Shown piece after piece: positions 1 to 11,988 of a DNA stretch of 11,988 nucleotides (position 1 is the stretch's first letter; every line of letters begins with the position of its first letter). The DNA is from Escherichia coli (GTDB taxonomy: Bacteria > Pseudomonadota > Gammaproteobacteria > Enterobacterales > Enterobacteriaceae), in NCBI RefSeq assembly GCF_041248615.1, contig NZ_CP158424.1; one strand, 5' to 3'. The notes beneath the pieces are model-generated. The model made no database searches. It was not told where the DNA came from and worked only from the letters and a program-made list of their open reading frames with translations. The position numbers and the translations under genes are program-made.

Positions 1-422
1 TACGCACTCAATTCCGGAGGGGGAGTGTAGGGAAGTGCCTGATTTATTTTATGTACGCGCAAAAATGAGATAGCTTTTATTAGATATCATCAGCCCTGTC
101 TGCATCAGTCAGCTCCTTACAGCGTCAGGAGTACTGATGAAGGGGGGAACGTTCCTGCGTTTTTGCAAAGGCAATCCGGCTAGAGGCTTTACTACGCAGA
201 AACATTCCGGACAACTTTTTACCCCAGTGTAACCTGTAGATCAACCAGATTTTGTTGCAGTAAAAATACAGTGGTTTCGCATTTGTAATATTTGTCACAA
301 AAATAACATCAATATGTTGGTTTTCTGTTGATAAATGGTTTGGTCGCTGATTATGATTTCCTTGTACTCCACAGGAGTACAGTCATGTGCATACTAAAAT
401 CCGTGTTTTCGATAAAATTAAG

Positions 423-449
423 GCCGTGATACAGAATCACGGCTTTTTT
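423..449 (+). terminator. Putative rho-independent terminator
   Basis: Hairpin GCCGTGAT (423-430) / loop acaga / ATCACGGC (436-443) followed by T6 (444-449). Read directly from sequence. Confidence 0.5.
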
Positions 450-617
450 CTTGCCTGAAAGGATCATTTACGCTAGAAGAGTTATGAGCGCGTCTCTGGT
501 GTTTGTTGCAGGGATAATATCTAATATGGGGCACCGGAAACGCGCTCTCCCTTCGTATACAGAATGCCCATTAATTTCTTCTTCCTGATTTTCCAGACAT
601 ATATTCTTGTGTAAATT

Positions 618-2745: not shown

Positions 2746-4602
2746 ATGCCGGGGTTTAATTACGGTGGGTATGGTGACGGTACTGGCTGGAGTTCTGAAA
2801 GTGGTGGTCCAGCTCCAGGCGGTGGTATGCATGGAAATAGTGGAGGCCAGCGCGGAGATAACGCAAACAGTAGCAATTCTGTGAGTCAGCAGATTTCTGC
2901 CATTCAGAATGATCAGAAACTTAAACAGAAAGTGGTGAATATGCTGATTGCTGCGAGAAAAATGAATCCTGAAGCAAAAATGATTCTGGGAAGTATTGCT
3001 CCTTCTGGTGTTATGCAGGTCACCATTGAGGGGGTAACCTCCACTCAGGCCAGGCAGCTTGGTTTGGGAGGGCTGGTCATGGGATATAACGCTTCTGGTG
3101 TTATTGGGGCTGTGGGCGAAATAGACACCGGTCACCGCCTTAATGCATCAGGAGCAAGTACTCCCGGAAGCGAAACTTCTGTGGAGAGTTTTGTGAACGG
3201 ACAGAAACCAGCCGGAGAATGGCATGCTGTGGCGAAGGACAGCTGGACAGGGGCTGGTCCAGTGAATGTAGGGCTGGTTAATAACGCCATCAAAAGTGTC
3301 CGGATTATCAAAAAAGGCTATGTGACGGGCGTTCTCACGCCAGAAGAGGTGATGAATAAAGCAGAGTACAAAGCAATGCGGCAGGCTTTCGATTCCCTTC
3401 CACTGGCAAAACAGGGAGAGGCTGTCAGACAGATTGTTGCTGCTTGGAGTCTGGCATATCAGGATTTTCCGGTAAATCTGAAAAAAGAGATGGGGCGTGT
3501 CACTGAACGGATTGTTGATGCTATTAACCTGGCGCTCATTCTTAATCAGACAGAGTCCCGTTTGTCGGAATCACAAAAGAATGTTGATGTAGCGAACCAG
3601 ATTATCAGTGATACAGTAAAAGCTATTAATGATGTAAATAAGAAAATAGCAGAAAAACGAAATCAGCAGGTATCACTGACTGATTTGATGAATAAAAAAC
3701 AAAAAGAGGTCGAAGATCTTAAAAAGATATTCAAAAATCACTCTTATCACCGTATTCGTGATGCCCAGAGGGAATATGATGATGCCCGAAATAAATATGC
3801 TTTACTGGCCAGTGATATTAATGCGCTGCAGGCACAGGTTTCCGGACTGACGGCAAGGAAACAGCAGGCAGAACAGAACAAGGCAGCAGCAGAAAAAGCA
3901 AAGGCAGATGCAGCGGCGAAAGCTGCAGCAGAAAAAGCGGCTGCTGAAGCGAAAGCAAAGGCTGAAGCTGAAAAAGCCAGAAAGGAAGCAGAGGAAAAAG
4001 CAAATGACGAGAAGGCTGTTCTGACAAAAGCCAGTGAAATTATCATCAGTGTTGGTGATAAGGCTGGGGAGTATCTGGGTGATAAATATAAAGTTCTTTC
4101 TCGTGAGATAGCAGATAATATCAAAAACTTTCAGGGCAAAACGATTCGTAGTTATGATGAGGCGATGGCTTCTGTCAATAAACTGATGGCTAATCCTGAT
4201 CTTAAAATTAATGCCGCCGACAGGGATGCAATTGTGAATGCTTGGAAAGCATTTGATGCAGAGGATATGGGGAATAAGTTTGCCGCGCTGGGTAAGACGT
4301 TTAAAGCCGCAGATTATATGATGAAGGCAAACAACGTCCGGGAGAAGAGTATCGAGGGGTATCAGACCGGAAACTGGGGGCCGCTGATGCTGGAGATTGA
4401 GTCCTGGGTATTGAGTGGTATTGCTTCTGCTGTGGCGCTATCATTTTTCTCAGTCGCTGTTGGTTCATTATTTATTACAGCGGGCGTGTCTGTAACGGCT
4501 GTGGGACTTATGGGCATTATTTTTGCTGGCTTTATCGGTGCGCTGATTGATGATGATTTTGTTGATAAGTTAAATAACGAAATTATTCGCCCTGCGTATT
4601 AA
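2746..4602 (+). CDS. Pore-forming colicin, colicin A/U/Y family (618 aa)
   Basis: Track ORF 2704-4602 begins at a TTG; best start is ATG 2746 (GAGG 2735-2738, 7-nt spacer). N-terminus MPGFNYGGYGDGTGWSSE plus Gly-rich segment matches the colicin A translocation-domain start as I recall it. Ala/Lys/Glu-rich helical linker. C-terminal about 200 aa (NFQGKTIRSYDEAMAS ... NWGPLMLEIESWVLSGIAS ... hydrophobic helical hairpin ... NNEIIRPAY) matches the colicin A-subgroup pore-forming domain. Length is close to colicin U/Y. Confidence 0.93.
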   Translation: MPGFNYGGYGDGTGWSSESGGPAPGGGMHGNSGGQRGDNANSSNSVSQQISAIQNDQKLKQKVVNMLIAARKMNPEAKMILGSIAPSGVMQVTIEGVTSTQARQLGLGGLVMGYNASGVIGAVGEIDTGHRLNASGASTPGSETSVESFVNGQKPAGEWHAVAKDSWTGAGPVNVGLVNNAIKSVRIIKKGYVTGVLTPEEVMNKAEYKAMRQAFDSLPLAKQGEAVRQIVAAWSLAYQDFPVNLKKEMGRVTERIVDAINLALILNQTESRLSESQKNVDVANQIISDTVKAINDVNKKIAEKRNQQVSLTDLMNKKQKEVEDLKKIFKNHSYHRIRDAQREYDDARNKYALLASDINALQAQVSGLTARKQQAEQNKAAAEKAKADAAAKAAAEKAAAEAKAKAEAEKARKEAEEKANDEKAVLTKASEIIISVGDKAGEYLGDKYKVLSREIADNIKNFQGKTIRSYDEAMASVNKLMANPDLKINAADRDAIVNAWKAFDAEDMGNKFAALGKTFKAADYMMKANNVREKSIEGYQTGNWGPLMLEIESWVLSGIASAVALSFFSVAVGSLFITAGVSVTAVGLMGIIFAGFIGALIDDDFVDKLNNEIIRPAY

Positions 4603-5469: not shown

Positions 5470-5579
5470 GCAAACAAAAAAACCACCGCTACCAACGGTG
5501 GTTTGTTTGCCGGATCAAGAGCTACCAACTCTTTTTCCGAAGGTAACTGGCTTGGAGGAGCACAGTCACCAAAACCTGT
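5470..5579 (-). ncRNA. RNAI: RNA I, antisense copy-number and incompatibility regulator
   Basis: Complement of the first about 110 nt of RNA II. Stem-loop 1 (AACCACCGCTACCAACGGTGGTT) is conserved with pMB1; distal stem-loop sequence (5553-5579) diverges. Ends are approximate. Confidence 0.8.
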
Positions 5580-6637: not shown

Positions 6638-6994
6638 ATGGGGGTAATGATACCGATGAAACGCGAGAGGATGCTCACGATACGGGTTACTGATGATGAA
6701 CATGCCCGGTTACTGGAACGCTGTGAGGGTAAACAACTGGCGGTATGGATGCGGCGGGTCTGCCTGGGTGAGCCGGTTGCCCGTTCCGGGAAGCTGCCGA
6801 CACTGGCACCGCCGTTACTGCGTCAGCTGGCCGCCATCGGGAATAACCTGAATCAGACAGCGAGGAAGGTGAACAGCGGGCAGTGGTCTTCCGGTGACCG
6901 GGTTCAGGTAGTGGCCGCACTGATGGCCATCGGGGAGGAGCTGCGCCGGCTGCGTCTGGCCGTCAGGGAACAGGGGGCGCGGGATGATAGTTAA
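6638..6994 (+). CDS. mbeC: Mobilisation protein MbeC/MobC (relaxosome accessory protein)
   Basis: MLTIRVTDDEHARLLERCEGKQLAVWMRR... matches the MobC N-terminal remnant retained in pBR322 and the ColE1 MbeC family. Divergent from rop. Start could be ATG 6638, 6656 or 6671; 6638 has the best SD spacing. Confidence 0.85.
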   Translation: MGVMIPMKRERMLTIRVTDDEHARLLERCEGKQLAVWMRRVCLGEPVARSGKLPTLAPPLLRQLAAIGNNLNQTARKVNSGQWSSGDRVQVVAALMAIGEELRRLRLAVREQGARDDS

Positions 6995-8549
6995 GTTTCA
7001 TGCCAGGGGAAAAGGTGGTGGCAGTGGTCCGGTTGATTACCTGCTGGGAAGGGAGCGTAACCGGGAAGGGGCAACGGTGCTTCAGGGTAATCCGGAAGAA
7101 GTCCGGGAACTCATCGATGCCACGCCATTTGCGAAGAAATACACGTCAGGTGTTCTGTCGTTCGCGGAGAAGGAGCTGCCGCCGGGAGGACGTGAAAAAG
7201 TGATGGCGAGCTTTGAGCGTGTACTGATGCCCGGTCTCGAAAAAAATCAGTACAGCATCCTGTGGGTGGAGCACCAGGACAAGGGACGGCTTGAGCTGAA
7301 TTTTGTCATTCCGAACATGGAGCTACAGAGCGGAAAACGCCTCCAGCCGTACTACGACCGGGCAGACAGGCCGAGAATTGATGCCTGGCAGACGCTGGTT
7401 AATCACCATTACGGGCTGCATGACCCCAACGCCCCGGAGAACCGCCGGACGCTGACTCTCCCTGATAACCTGCCGGAAACGAAACAGGCGCTTGCTGAGA
7501 GCGTCACACGCGGGATAGACGCTCTTTATCATGTCGGGGAGATAAAAGGCCGTCAGGATGTGATTCAGGCGCTCACAGAGGCGGGGCTTGAAGTGGTCAG
7601 AGTGACGCGAAGCAGCATCAGTATTGCAGACCCGAACGGCGGGAAGAATATCAGGCTGAAAGGAGCATTCTATGAGCAATCTTTTACAGACGGGCGCGGA
7701 GTTCGAGAAAAAGCTGAAAGAGAGAGCCGCATCTACAGAGAAAATGCTGAACGACGAGTTCAGGAAGCTCGAAGAATCTGTAAACAGGGAACTGACCTCA
7801 AACGAATCTTTAATCAGGAACGCTATCAACGCCCATACAGCAGCCCTGAAAGAACTTCTGGAGAGGTATCAGAAAACGACCGTCAGCACGATGGACACAC
7901 ACTGGCAAACCGTGCTGAAAATGAGCGTGAAACGCTGGCTGTGGCTGATTATCGTCTCAGTGCTGATGTTTGCCACGACCGGGAGTCTGCTGTGGTACCA
8001 GGGCATGAAGATAAACGCAAACATGAATATTCTCCGCGAGCAGAAAGAGAGTCTGGAGAAGCTGAACGCGAAGACATGGGGCGTGCGTTATCACGAGGAC
8101 AGCAACGGACGTTTTCTGGTGTTGCCGAAGGGGATGAAAGCCGAAACGCACTGGACGGAGGACAACGGCAAACTGAACGCAGTGAGACTGGTACAGGAGT
8201 GACAGAGCATGACGGAGCTGGAAAAACATTTGCTGAACGCCTTAGAGCAACTGCAACAGGACTATATGCAGCGGCTGAACGAATGGGAGAGCGCCTTCGT
8301 GGAATTGCAGAAGATGTTTTCGCTTACGCAACGGGACAACGCGATGCTGAACGAGCGGGTCATGCAGTTGAGTCAGCAGGTGCAGCACTTGAGCGAGCGG
8401 ACAGAACGCTTGAGCCAGTTATACAGCGAGAACAGGAGATAAGGGACGAACGGCTGATACAGGAACGCGAACATGAGTTATCCCTGGAGCGTGAGCGCCA
8501 TCTGGAAATACAGGAACGGACACTGGATGGCCCGTCGCTGGGATGGTAA
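6984..8549 (+). CDS. mbeA: Relaxase MbeA/MobA (ColE1-type, 521 aa)
   Basis: N-terminus MIVKFHARGKGGGSGPVDYLLG... is characteristic of ColE1-family relaxases; start overlaps the mbeC stop; C-terminal half is Arg/Glu-rich as in MbeA. Confidence 0.92.
   Translation: MIVKFHARGKGGGSGPVDYLLGRERNREGATVLQGNPEEVRELIDATPFAKKYTSGVLSFAEKELPPGGREKVMASFERVLMPGLEKNQYSILWVEHQDKGRLELNFVIPNMELQSGKRLQPYYDRADRPRIDAWQTLVNHHYGLHDPNAPENRRTLTLPDNLPETKQALAESVTRGIDALYHVGEIKGRQDVIQALTEAGLEVVRVTRSSISIADPNGGKNIRLKGAFYEQSFTDGRGVREKAERESRIYRENAERRVQEARRICKQGTDLKRIFNQERYQRPYSSPERTSGEVSENDRQHDGHTLANRAENERETLAVADYRLSADVCHDRESAVVPGHEDKRKHEYSPRAERESGEAEREDMGRALSRGQQRTFSGVAEGDESRNALDGGQRQTERSETGTGVTEHDGAGKTFAERLRATATGLYAAAERMGERLRGIAEDVFAYATGQRDAERAGHAVESAGAALERADRTLEPVIQREQEIRDERLIQEREHELSLERERHLEIQERTLDGPSLGW
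7672..8202 (+). CDS. mbeB: MbeB/MobB mobilisation protein, nested in an alternative frame of mbeA
   Basis: ATG 7672 with AGGAG upstream; 176 aa with a predicted TM segment (WLWLIIVSVLMFATTGSLLW). Nested arrangement matches ColE1 mbeB. Confidence 0.75.
   Translation: MSNLLQTGAEFEKKLKERAASTEKMLNDEFRKLEESVNRELTSNESLIRNAINAHTAALKELLERYQKTTVSTMDTHWQTVLKMSVKRWLWLIIVSVLMFATTGSLLWYQGMKINANMNILREQKESLEKLNAKTWGVRYHEDSNGRFLVLPKGMKAETHWTEDNGKLNAVRLVQE
8209..8442 (+). CDS. mbeD: MbeD/MobD (77 aa coiled-coil protein), nested within mbeA
   Basis: ATG 8209 with AGGAG 9 nt upstream; helical, Gln/Leu-rich sequence; position directly after mbeB as in ColE1. Confidence 0.7.
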   Translation: MTELEKHLLNALEQLQQDYMQRLNEWESAFVELQKMFSLTQRDNAMLNERVMQLSQQVQHLSERTERLSQLYSENRR

Positions 8550-8769: not shown

Positions 8770-9498
8770 TAGACGCCAGAATGCGTTTAATGCTTCTTCT
8801 GATGGTATCAGAGAGGAGCAGCTTGAGTTATTCCTGTTGGCCACAGAGCGTAATTATCTCCTTTTCAGATCCACACGGGGATACGTCAGAGTAGGAACTG
8901 AGCAAGGATTACTGAAAGATACTTTTTGCCAGAAAAAAATCCTCATACATGATGAGGATAAAGTCTTAAAGGTCCATTCTATGGAGTGTCGGATTGAAAA
9001 ATTTCTCCGGATGATATCCTTCACAGTTTAAATGTGATTTCAACCATAAGTTTTTTATGGATTTTGTTAAATAAAAAAGAATTGAGTCGTGTTTCTGATA
9101 TGTCTTAATATAATAAGTGAACAGTTATAAAATAATTGTGTTATATTTATTGTGAGTTTGATGTTATGTTCTGCATAAATAACTGTAGTTTAGAATATTA
9201 TTCTTTTATATTTATAGCTGTGAGATGATAAATTATAAGTGTTCTTTGTGCTATAAAGAACCCCCCGTATAAGGGGGGGAAAGATGGGTTTACTTCTTTT
9301 TAGTCCATGCCCTGGTGAGCTACATGAAGCTCGACACTACAGTAAAAATTTGGCAGTTTTTTTGAACTTTACGCAAGCAATTTATTTACATTGTAAAGAA
9401 AACCCCCTCAATTTGCGTATTACCGTGAAGGAGATCGGTGAGTAACATCGATGGAGATCGGTTCGTGTCACTTTCACAGAACCGTTTTTAAATTACCT

Positions 9499-10248
9499 TC
9501 ACTGATCTCCTTCGGTCAACGGAGATTGTATTTTCCGCATTGATTCTCCTTTAAGTTCGATCTTGATACTGCCATGAACCAGTCGATCTAGGATGGCATC
9601 CGCATGTGTGGAGTCTCCGATCATTTTGTACCAGTTTTCCACCGGCAACTGGCTCACTACGATGATTGAGCCTCGTTGGTACATCAGATCCACTATTTCC
9701 AGCAGGTCGCTACGCTGTTCTGATGAGAGAGGTTCCAGCCCCCAGTCATCCAGAAGCAGCAGATCGCTATTATTCAGCCTGGTCAAAAGTTTGCTGTATC
9801 TTCCATCAGCATGCCCCTGATAGCACTGTTCCATCAGCGCTTTAAGGCGATAATAGTAGACCTTGTATCCCTGTCGGCAGGCATTATGACCAAGTGCACA
9901 TGCCAGGAACGTTTTACCGCTGCCGGTGGCCCCGGTCAGTAAAATATTTTGTTTCAGGGTTAACCAGTTTCCCTGACTGAGTGAACGGATGAGGGCCCTG
10001 TCCAGCCCTCTATTGTTACGATAATCCAGCTTTGATAACTCAGCATTAAGTCTGAACCGTGCATGTTTGATCAGACGCTCTGCCTTCCTGTTTTCACGGC
10101 AGGTTAGTTCTTCTGCTGTCAGTAATGACAGGCGTTCTTCGAAGCCCAGCTCCTGGTATGTGCCCGGCTGAGCAAGTTGCTTTTTAAGCGCATCACGGAA
10201 GCCGGTGAGTTTAAGTGCGGTCAGTTGTTCGTAAAGATGATTCATCAT
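9499..10248 (-). CDS. istB: IstB-like ATPase helper of IS21-family transposition (249 aa)
   Basis: Walker A motif GATGSGKT and Walker B-like LLLLDDWG; size and position directly downstream of istA. Confidence 0.92.
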   Translation of the reverse strand: MMNHLYEQLTALKLTGFRDALKKQLAQPGTYQELGFEERLSLLTAEELTCRENRKAERLIKHARFRLNAELSKLDYRNNRGLDRALIRSLSQGNWLTLKQNILLTGATGSGKTFLACALGHNACRQGYKVYYYRLKALMEQCYQGHADGRYSKLLTRLNNSDLLLLDDWGLEPLSSEQRSDLLEIVDLMYQRGSIIVVSQLPVENWYKMIGDSTHADAILDRLVHGSIKIELKGESMRKIQSPLTEGDQ

Positions 10249-10259
10249 TGGATCCCGTA

Positions 10260-11801
10260 TCAGTGGTAATACTCACTGCCGCGTACGTTTTCGTGTTCCA
10301 TCGTGGATAACAGATCTGGTTTTGGATCCTGAACAGGTTGTTTATCCAGACCTTTTTCCAGGATCGATTTAATACCTGACAGACGCCATACCTTTGTTTT
10401 CAGAGCTCTTGCACATGCTGCATTAAGTCTGGCTTTACTGTATTTTTTATGAAGGTTCAGGAGTCCAAGGCAGAAGCGATAGCTTTGTTCCGGATGTGGA
10501 CGAGAGTTCAGTATATGAAGCACATAACTATGAGTTTCACTGCCTATGTGCCCCGCCCATTCCAGAAGACGCTCTGGCGTCCAGGTGGCATGCTGTCGAT
10601 GAGCTTCAGGCATGTGCTCGTTGCGGGTACTGTAGCCATAAGTACGCTTGCGCGGGTGCACAGCAACCTCCTGCCCCTGATTGAAGAGTCTTACCAGTTC
10701 TCCGGAGATCCATGCTTCCAGTTGCTGGCCTAACAGCGAACATGGAACCGAGTAGTAATGTTTGTCGATTTCCACGTGGTAATCGGCATGAACTCTGACT
10801 TTCTTCACCAGGGTGTAACTGTAACTGGCTTCAGGAAGAGGCTTCAGTGCGGGTTTATCAAGCTGGATGAAGAGTTCTGCACGTGAATAACCCAACTTCT
10901 GCATTATTTTGTTATTCAGTCTTTCCAGCAACTCCCGAATGCGCTGATTAAGCGATGCAAGGCTGTAGAAGATCTCATGCCTGATTCGGGCCATGATCCA
11001 GCGTTCAACAACCTGAACGCCAACTTCAGCTTTGGCTTTATCTTTCGGTTTACGTGGCCGCGCAGGCAAAACTGCGACATTATAATGCTCAAGCATCTGC
11101 TGGTAGGTAGGGTTAACGTCAGGATCATACTTACATGCCCTGGATGTGGCGCTTTTCAGATTGTCCGGAACAACAAGTTCAGGAACGCCACCCAACCACT
11201 GGAAGCAGCGAACATGACTCATCACCCAGTCTTCAAGCTGCTGAGACCAGGTGGCCTCTGCCCATGTGTAACTTGATGCCCCGAGAACAGCTACGATGAC
11301 CTGAGCAGTTCTTATTTCTCCGGTCTCAGGGTCGGTAACGCCAACGGTAGGTCCACAGTAATCAACGAAAAGTTTTTCGCCAGCTTTATGTACCTGACGC
11401 ATTGATGGTGAAGTGGTTTTGAGCCATTCACGGTACATCCGGCAGTAATGGTTATAGCTGTAAAAACCGCCTGGATTACGCTCACAGTATTCTTCCCAGA
11501 GTAGCTGCAGCGTCACGCATTTATTACGCAGTTCCCGGTGTACTGTAGCCCAGTCAGGCAGAGAGTGCTTCTTCATCTTAACCTGGGTCTGAAGGAACGC
11601 ATGTTTTAGTTTTGTATCATCCCATCCTGTAGGTAAGGGCCACTGCTTTATGCCAAGTTGAGCCGCCCGATTAGCATATCTGGATACAACGGAAGGGGAG
11701 ATTGCAAGACTACGACCAATTTGTCGATGGCTGAGTCCAACACCGTATTTAAGCCTAAGAATTTCTTTAAGTTTTCTCATAGAAATTGGAACTGTTGGCA
11801 T
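10260..11801 (-). CDS. istA: IstA transposase, IS21 family (513 aa)
   Basis: N-terminal HTH (LKEILRLKYGVGLSHRQIGRSLAISPSVVSRY) followed by a long catalytic region; AGGA 5 nt upstream of ATG 11801; 11-bp gap to istB. Confidence 0.92.
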   Translation of the reverse strand: MPTVPISMRKLKEILRLKYGVGLSHRQIGRSLAISPSVVSRYANRAAQLGIKQWPLPTGWDDTKLKHAFLQTQVKMKKHSLPDWATVHRELRNKCVTLQLLWEEYCERNPGGFYSYNHYCRMYREWLKTTSPSMRQVHKAGEKLFVDYCGPTVGVTDPETGEIRTAQVIVAVLGASSYTWAEATWSQQLEDWVMSHVRCFQWLGGVPELVVPDNLKSATSRACKYDPDVNPTYQQMLEHYNVAVLPARPRKPKDKAKAEVGVQVVERWIMARIRHEIFYSLASLNQRIRELLERLNNKIMQKLGYSRAELFIQLDKPALKPLPEASYSYTLVKKVRVHADYHVEIDKHYYSVPCSLLGQQLEAWISGELVRLFNQGQEVAVHPRKRTYGYSTRNEHMPEAHRQHATWTPERLLEWAGHIGSETHSYVLHILNSRPHPEQSYRFCLGLLNLHKKYSKARLNAACARALKTKVWRLSGIKSILEKGLDKQPVQDPKPDLLSTMEHENVRGSEYYH

Positions 11802-11988
11802 AGGTATCCTTTACCGGAATGGCAAAAGATACAGATCAACACACCTGTGAAGTTCCAATAACATTGATGGAGATCACTGAATAACAAAATGAGTCAAAAG
11901 TGATCTCCATCGATGTTATTCAGCGATCTGTTCAAATGTTATTACCCGATCTCGATGGAAGTTATTGAGTGATCTCCTTTCATGAAAA

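Follow-up and report, generated by a model that had tools for sequence, protein, structure and literature searches.

The insertion sequence found in the 11,988-nt stretch of DNA analysed here (the window) is, with a probability that we put at about 96%, a single intact copy of ISEc12, a 2581-bp element of the IS21 family that transposed into the 9.4-kb backbone of a ColE1-type colicin R plasmid. It is a known element with known behaviour, and it shows every defining IS21-family feature that was open to testing. On the minus strand, bases 7 to 2581 of the element (in its own orientation) occupy positions 9414 to 11988 of the window, and its outermost six bases (TACGCA), which belong to the istA-proximal end (IRL), lie at positions 1 to 6, split off from the rest only by the arbitrary point at which the window starts. 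Over its full 2581 bp it matches, at 100% identity, many copies labelled "IS21-like element ISEc12 family" in RefSeq. Its IstA and IstB proteins (WP_001298859.1 and WP_001016257.1, both assigned to the ISEc12 family in RefSeq) are common to other copies, and it is this RefSeq/NCBI labelling of identical proteins, together with published work, and not the ISfinder reference, that supports the name ISEc12.

The window corresponds exactly, after rotation by 569 bp, to NZ_LT599828.1, the 11,988-bp plasmid p14408_3 of Escherichia coli NRZ14408, as determined by megablast (a 100% match over the whole length) and a script. Window base 1 directly follows base 11988 in that record, which is thus contiguous across 11988|1. 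The plasmid is a ColE1-type mobilizable replicon carrying the colicin R operon cra/cri/crl, together with rop, a MobC-family gene, mbeA/B/D, exc1 and exc2. RNAI, on the minus strand at 5474-5577, was the sole Rfam family that reached the gathering score, and a cer-like XerCD core was located at 1513-1542 using the ColE1 cer core as query. A search of the literature on strain NRZ14408 found nothing about p14408_3. The insertion site is in non-coding DNA, with the mob genes on one side and the cer/exc region on the other, and hence none of the annotated plasmid genes is interrupted. The left flank (9032-9413) is plasmid backbone outside the insertion sequence; it is AT-rich (29.8% GC) and devoid of annotated genes. 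The initial annotation had correctly placed the insertion in an AT-rich, non-coding stretch downstream of the mob genes, but the coordinate 9032, which it gave as the start of the element, is where the AT-rich flank begins and not where ISEc12 does.

Evidence for a simple insertion comes from a plasmid that lacks the element. The empty site that we reconstructed (903 bp) matched NZ_CP100534.1 at 100%. This record is pLH10-b-1-D, a circular plasmid of 9400 bp from a Swiss poultry isolate, and its length is exactly that of the window less the element and seven bases (11988 − 2581 − 7). Once the insertion sequence and one CTCAATT are taken out of the window, the two sequences agree at every base except one, a G/T polymorphism at window position 4555, inside cra; the left flank from 9032 to 9413 is colinear and identical in the two. 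On either side of the element in p14408_3 stands CTCAATT (9407-9413 and 7-13), a perfect 7-bp duplication, whereas the twin has CTCAATT only once, and the breakpoints relative to the twin fall at 9413|9414 and 6|7. Target-site duplications in the IS21 family measure 4-8 bp, so a duplication of this size is of the short kind expected. Because the two plasmids differ only by the insertion sequence, one copy of the duplication and one single-nucleotide polymorphism, we interpret the event as a clean simple insertion with a 7-bp duplication, and the comparison is as near to proof of this as sequence alone allows. The target-site duplication could not be confirmed in the initial annotation, where the flanks did not match; it became visible because the ends were corrected and the window was read as a circle. 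Reading past position 11988 in search of the direct repeat, which the initial annotation had proposed, did yield the second copy at 7-13.

The ends of the element were fixed by comparison with 16 other copies from plasmids and chromosomes, all of which are 2581 bp long, share the same termini and have 0-2 mismatches relative to the p14408_3 copy. The element begins with TGCGTATT at 9414 and finishes with AATACGCA at window position 6; read further inward, the left end is TGCGTATTACCGTGAAGGAGATC from 9414 and the right end is GATCTCCTTTCATGAAAATACGCA up to window base 6. The first 8 bp are identical at the two ends, and the element starts with 5′-TG and ends with CA-3′, as is characteristic of IS21-family termini. 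The ends implied earlier, after the flank taccg (9425) and before the flank tgaaa (11982), miss 11 bp of the element on the left and 12 bp on the right. If an element spanning 9425-11982 without a duplication were nevertheless the correct one, the insertion would have to be old, rearranged or composite. The TG at 9425 and the CA at 11981-11982 superficially fit IS21-family termini, and the flanks taccg and tgaaa do differ from one another; however, in all of the other copies the shared sequence extends 11 bases further on the left and 12 further on the right, BLAST identity to other copies continued beyond 9425 on the left and as far as position 11988 on the right, and the breakpoints relative to the twin lie elsewhere. 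These boundaries are thereby refuted. We give this reading virtually no chance. The ISEc12 copy is neither truncated nor composite, as had been allowed for, and the corrected boundaries make the insertion into this backbone clearer rather than removing it.

Both ends consist of repeated 23-bp units. The istB-proximal end (IRR, 9414 to 9459) contains two direct units, each ending in GGAGATC, with the outer unit starting with TG. The istA-proximal end (IRL, 11903 to 11988 plus 1-6) contains four direct units in a strict 23-bp register, the outermost of which ends in CA. A fifth unit, inverted and 95% complementary, was found inside IRL, upstream of istA (11857 to 11879), and an inverted partial copy of the end unit lies over the istB stop codon. 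The core GGAGATC occurs seven times in the window, as compared with 1.25 occurrences expected by chance, and six of the seven are in the ends of the element. In a cryo-EM study of the IS5376 transposase, IS21-family ends are described as having multiple direct repeats separated by 23 bp and a reactive terminal CA, and two complete repeats are reported to be required for integration (PMC10122671). The direct repeats about 23 bp apart at both ends of ISEc12 agree with this description and bear out the multi-repeat terminal inverted repeats noted originally.

The two genes of the element are intact, lie on the minus strand and are separated by 11 bp, which is the two-gene organization of the IS21 family. 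The istA gene (10260 to 11801) encodes a DDE transposase of 513 aa in which an rve core is combined with a C-terminal domain resembling that of Mu transposase (Pfam rve and Mu-transpos_C_2), and its product scored 310.5 bits against the NCBIfam model NF033546, "IS21 family transposase", for which the cut-off is 160. The istB gene (9499 to 10248) encodes an AAA+ helper ATPase of 249 aa when read from the first ATG, the start in RefSeq being at 10245; the match to Pfam IstB_IS21 had an E value of 2.2e-67, the score against NF038214 (IS21 helper ATPase) was 270 bits with a cut-off of 200, and a Walker A motif, GATGSGKT, is present at residue 106. The intact genes, with scores above the curated cut-offs, and the full length of 2581 bp uphold the original assignment to a complete istA/istB element of the IS21 family. 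What the sequence shows directly is intact genes, canonical ends, a duplication and, in the twin, the empty site.

ISEc12 is widespread in E. coli. Matches to it were found in 1908 of 5426 complete genomes (about a third), at a median of three places in each genome that has any and about 5500 places altogether, and in 959 plasmid records. Matches covering at least 80% of the element were present in 1770 E. coli records, and the full-length rows that we sampled all align from 1 to 2581. The junction in p14408_3 was found nowhere else: when 72,556 plasmids and 5,426 complete E. coli genomes were searched with a 300-bp query across the left junction, the p14408_3 record alone covered it. The junction being unique among the records searched, the event is isolate-specific and probably recent.

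One could envision two other origins for such an arrangement. One is that ISEc12 from elsewhere in NRZ14408 was misjoined into the contig of the small plasmid during assembly. NZ_LT599828.1 is labelled linear, and a multi-copy repeat such as ISEc12 is of the kind that confuses assemblers. A misjoin, however, would not be expected to duplicate exactly 7 bp that the empty site has only once, and the remainder of the record is colinear and identical with the 9400-bp circular twin; for both of these reasons an artefact is very unlikely. The other scenario is replicon fusion, in which a replicon bearing ISEc12 formed a cointegrate with the Col plasmid and was then resolved by homologous recombination between the IS copies, leaving one copy and the duplication behind. 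IS21 itself is known for cointegrate formation (the subject of the IS21/R68.45 literature), potential ISEc12 donors are abundant on chromosomes and large plasmids, and the end product of this route would be indistinguishable from that of a simple insertion. Nothing in the sequence requires it, however; the backbone is that of the IS-free twin apart from one single-nucleotide polymorphism, with no extra DNA carried over, and the first 50 kb of p14408_2, a plasmid of the same strain, have no annotated ISEc12. Passage through a cointegrate is thus an unlikely alternative, and we retain direct insertion as the preferred reading.

The sequence at the empty site is AAAGAAAA-CCCCCTC-AATTCCG-GAGGGGG-AGTG. 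Taken on the minus strand of the twin, it can form a hairpin with a 7-bp stem (six G-C pairs) and a 7-nt loop, followed by the tail TTTTCTTTAC, an arrangement that has the sequence features of an intrinsic terminator, and it is the top terminator-like match on the minus strand in that part of the twin plasmid. ISEc12 entered the loop and left arm, duplicating three stem bases and four loop bases, so that the left arm (CCCCCTC, 9403 to 9409) and the right arm (GAGGGGG, 18 to 24) are now 2.6 kb apart. Segments about 80% identical to this region in large IncK2/Z plasmids keep the stem, with AATTTTA in place of AATTCCG in the loop and a longer adjacent A-run. The minimum free energy of the hairpin is −14.2 kcal/mol, which is not exceptional when compared with dinucleotide shuffles (z = −0.43), and no promoter-like site was found upstream of it on the minus strand within 400 bp. 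We therefore regard the role of the split hairpin as a minus-strand intrinsic terminator as only plausible, and we hold it with moderate confidence. The comparison with an IS-free relative, suggested in the initial annotation as a way of seeing what was interrupted, thus reveals a split terminator-like hairpin and no annotated gene that was hit. The accompanying remark, that elements inserted in this way may abolish promoters or generate new ones, holds in part, in that a terminator-like hairpin was split, but no promoter-like site spans either junction.

Several other candidates for what the insertion might have affected were rejected. An ORF of 48 codons spans the empty site of the twin, but relatives carry 1-bp and 5-bp indels near the site, and the ORF was therefore treated as non-coding; profile searches with the neighbouring ORFs gave no family match. 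The element did not insert into cer, the XerCD core being about 1.5 kb from the site. Beyond RNAI, Rfam returned only two weak matches at chance level (E = 0.6-1), so there is no sign of a known RNA family at the site.

We also considered whether the site reflects a general target preference of ISEc12. Across 14 sites for which the empty site was reconstructed, including that of p14408_3, only two fold unusually well (p14408_3, z = −2.6, and the site designated L014, z = −6.8), the others being ordinary, and a general preference for hairpins or terminators was discarded. A preference for AT-rich targets fared no better: over 44-nt neighbourhoods, the mean GC content of the 14 sites is about 50%, and p14408_3 has 52%. 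The AT-rich location is best read as survivorship, the element having landed in dispensable DNA without genes on a compact plasmid. Of the same 14 sites, nine carry a duplication of 5 bp, two one of 6 bp and three one of 7 bp, these last being CTCAATT, TCTCAAC and CGCAATG, which all contain CAA. Three further ISEc12 copies had no recognisable duplication and have probably been rearranged. A 7-bp duplication is hence a minority but recurrent outcome of ISEc12 transposition, and at p14408_3 the empty-site twin leaves no ambiguity about its length.

By analogy with IS21-family systems (PMC10122671, PMC11208146), the insertion could have proceeded as follows. IstA tetramers would bind the 23-bp units, bring both ends into a synapse and cleave at the terminal CA. 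The IstB ATPase would present the target DNA, to which the 3′ ends would then be joined at staggered positions, and repair of a 7-nt stagger would give rise to the CTCAATT duplication. Expected consequences would be the loss of the putative terminator and a plasmid about 27% larger than before.

The closest known counterparts are other copies of ISEc12, for example the one that interrupts tssM in ST131 clade C; the p14408_3 copy differs only in location and in the length of the duplication, which is 7 bp in p14408_3 and 5 bp in tssM (PMC10711316). IS5376 of Geobacillus stearothermophilus (PDB 8b4h, 8q4d, 8q3w and 5bq5) is the structurally characterised model for the family, and ISEc12 resembles it in the istA/istB layout, the DDE transposase, the AAA+ helper, the direct repeats 23 bp apart and the terminal CA. 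The IS5376 proteins are the closest solved relatives, yet only distant ones (IstA, 8b4h/8q4d, E = 3e-13; IstB, E = 2e-27), and the IstA of ISEc12 is about 100 residues longer. At its istA-proximal end, ISEc12 has four direct units and one inverted unit, as opposed to the two described for prototypical members. IS5376 generated uniform 5-bp duplications in vitro (PMC10122671). ISEc12 also resembles the element after which the family is named, with which it has in common the order of the genes, ends that start with TG and finish with CA, several repeats at the termini and a short duplication. That prototype, IS21 (from R68/R68.45 of Pseudomonas aeruginosa), is about 2.1 kb long and usually makes 4-5-bp duplications.

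One could speculate further that the split terminator has a regulatory effect on the element itself. ISEc12 and the putative terminator are co-directional, and an unannotated minus-strand transcript arising from a conserved non-coding block (window positions about 24-300) might continue into the istA-proximal end and increase istAB expression, which could turn the small mobilizable Col plasmid into an unusually active ISEc12 donor or cointegrate former. We found no promoter-like site on the minus strand between IRL and istA. Separately, the mixture of 5-, 6- and 7-bp duplications might reflect a flexible stagger in the IstA-IstB-target complex, unlike the uniform 5 bp of IS5376. We offer both proposals as long shots.

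ISEc12 is among the commonest insertion sequences of E. coli and the copy in p14408_3 hits no annotated gene, so that the event has little import beyond bookkeeping. It is nevertheless a clean and datable case of a small colicin R plasmid gaining an insertion sequence, one that can be set against an exact IS-free twin, and it shows that ISEc12 is able to make 7-bp as well as 5-bp duplications. It also illustrates a point of practice: windows cut from circular replicons should be read across their ends before a duplication is called missing. ISEc12 also provides the mobilizable p14408_3 with sequence homologous to that on large resistance and virulence plasmids, of which there are hundreds. This homology may lead to replicon fusion, and, being portable and combined with transposition activity, it could fuse p14408_3 with the many other replicons that carry ISEc12.

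The record NZ_LT599828.1 (plasmid p14408_3) is labelled linear, yet its sequence corresponds to a circular permutation of the circular 9400-bp plasmid pLH10-b-1-D, its IS-free twin, plus the insertion of ISEc12, an IS21-family element. The start point of the window sits 6 bp within the IS end, and because of this cut the initial annotation, which could not confirm a target-site duplication, missed the one that is present. The only backbone difference between the window and the twin is at position 4555, where the window has G and the twin has T. This substitution lies within the colicin R gene cra and is consistent with the differing colicin R protein accessions in the two records.

In both of these plasmids RefSeq splits mbeA into two "incomplete" pseudogene pieces. 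The mbeA reading frame at 6984-8549 (plus strand) of the window is intact, encoding 521 aa that include a relaxase domain, and the split looks like an artefact due to the nested mbeB/mbeD frames. Just downstream of exc2, at 1513-1542 on the plus strand, is a cer-like XerC/XerD crossover core, GGTGCGTATAATTAAGGGATTATGGTAAAT, which has one mismatch to the ColE1 cer core.

The element interrupts an AT-rich block of about 0.9 kb without annotated genes (8950-9413 and 14-460). Relatives of this block, at approximately 80% identity, reside within IS-rich regions of large conjugative plasmids, which were IncK2/Z in the two examined and many of which come from poultry isolates. A second G/C hairpin, CCCCCC-GTATAA-GGGGGG, is found at 9261-9280 on the minus strand, 130 bp from the hairpin split by the IS; it is of the same build and is likewise terminator-like on the minus strand.

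The interval 328-452 (plus strand), located 355 bp from ISEc12 and left untouched by it, is a candidate locus for a small structured RNA or a micro-ORF. Two hairpins and then a strong predicted terminator, which has an MFE of −27.7 kcal/mol (z = −4.4), lie 3′ of a plus-strand promoter-like site that matches at 10 of 12 positions (TTGATA-18-TATGAT). When the candidate was compared with the plasmid segments of approximately 80% identity, its centre was 100% conserved, both loops were altered, and the terminator stem showed one two-sided compensatory change, from C-G to T-A. The same interval includes a 14-codon ORF, MCILKSVFSIKLRP, preceded by an AGGAG motif, and a search of the candidate against Rfam gave no family match.

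The 8.9-kb relatives have an annotated transposase pseudogene fragment equivalent to ~845-1021 of the window on the minus strand, as placed by coordinate transfer from pSMS35_8 (7621-7797), and their alignment to the window, at 89% coverage, is broken into two segments. These two observations suggest that an older IS remnant, or an indel, is present in the backbone. The minus-strand ORF at 850-1098 matched no NCBIfam family.

Identical copies of ISEc12 at the comparison loci (L004-L021) are flanked by target-site duplications of 5, 6 or 7 bp, and CAA is present in all three of the 7-bp ISEc12 duplications (CTCAATT, TCTCAAC and CGCAATG). No duplication flanks three copies in this set (L006, L013 and L020), which suggests that ISEc12 copies later recombined with one another.
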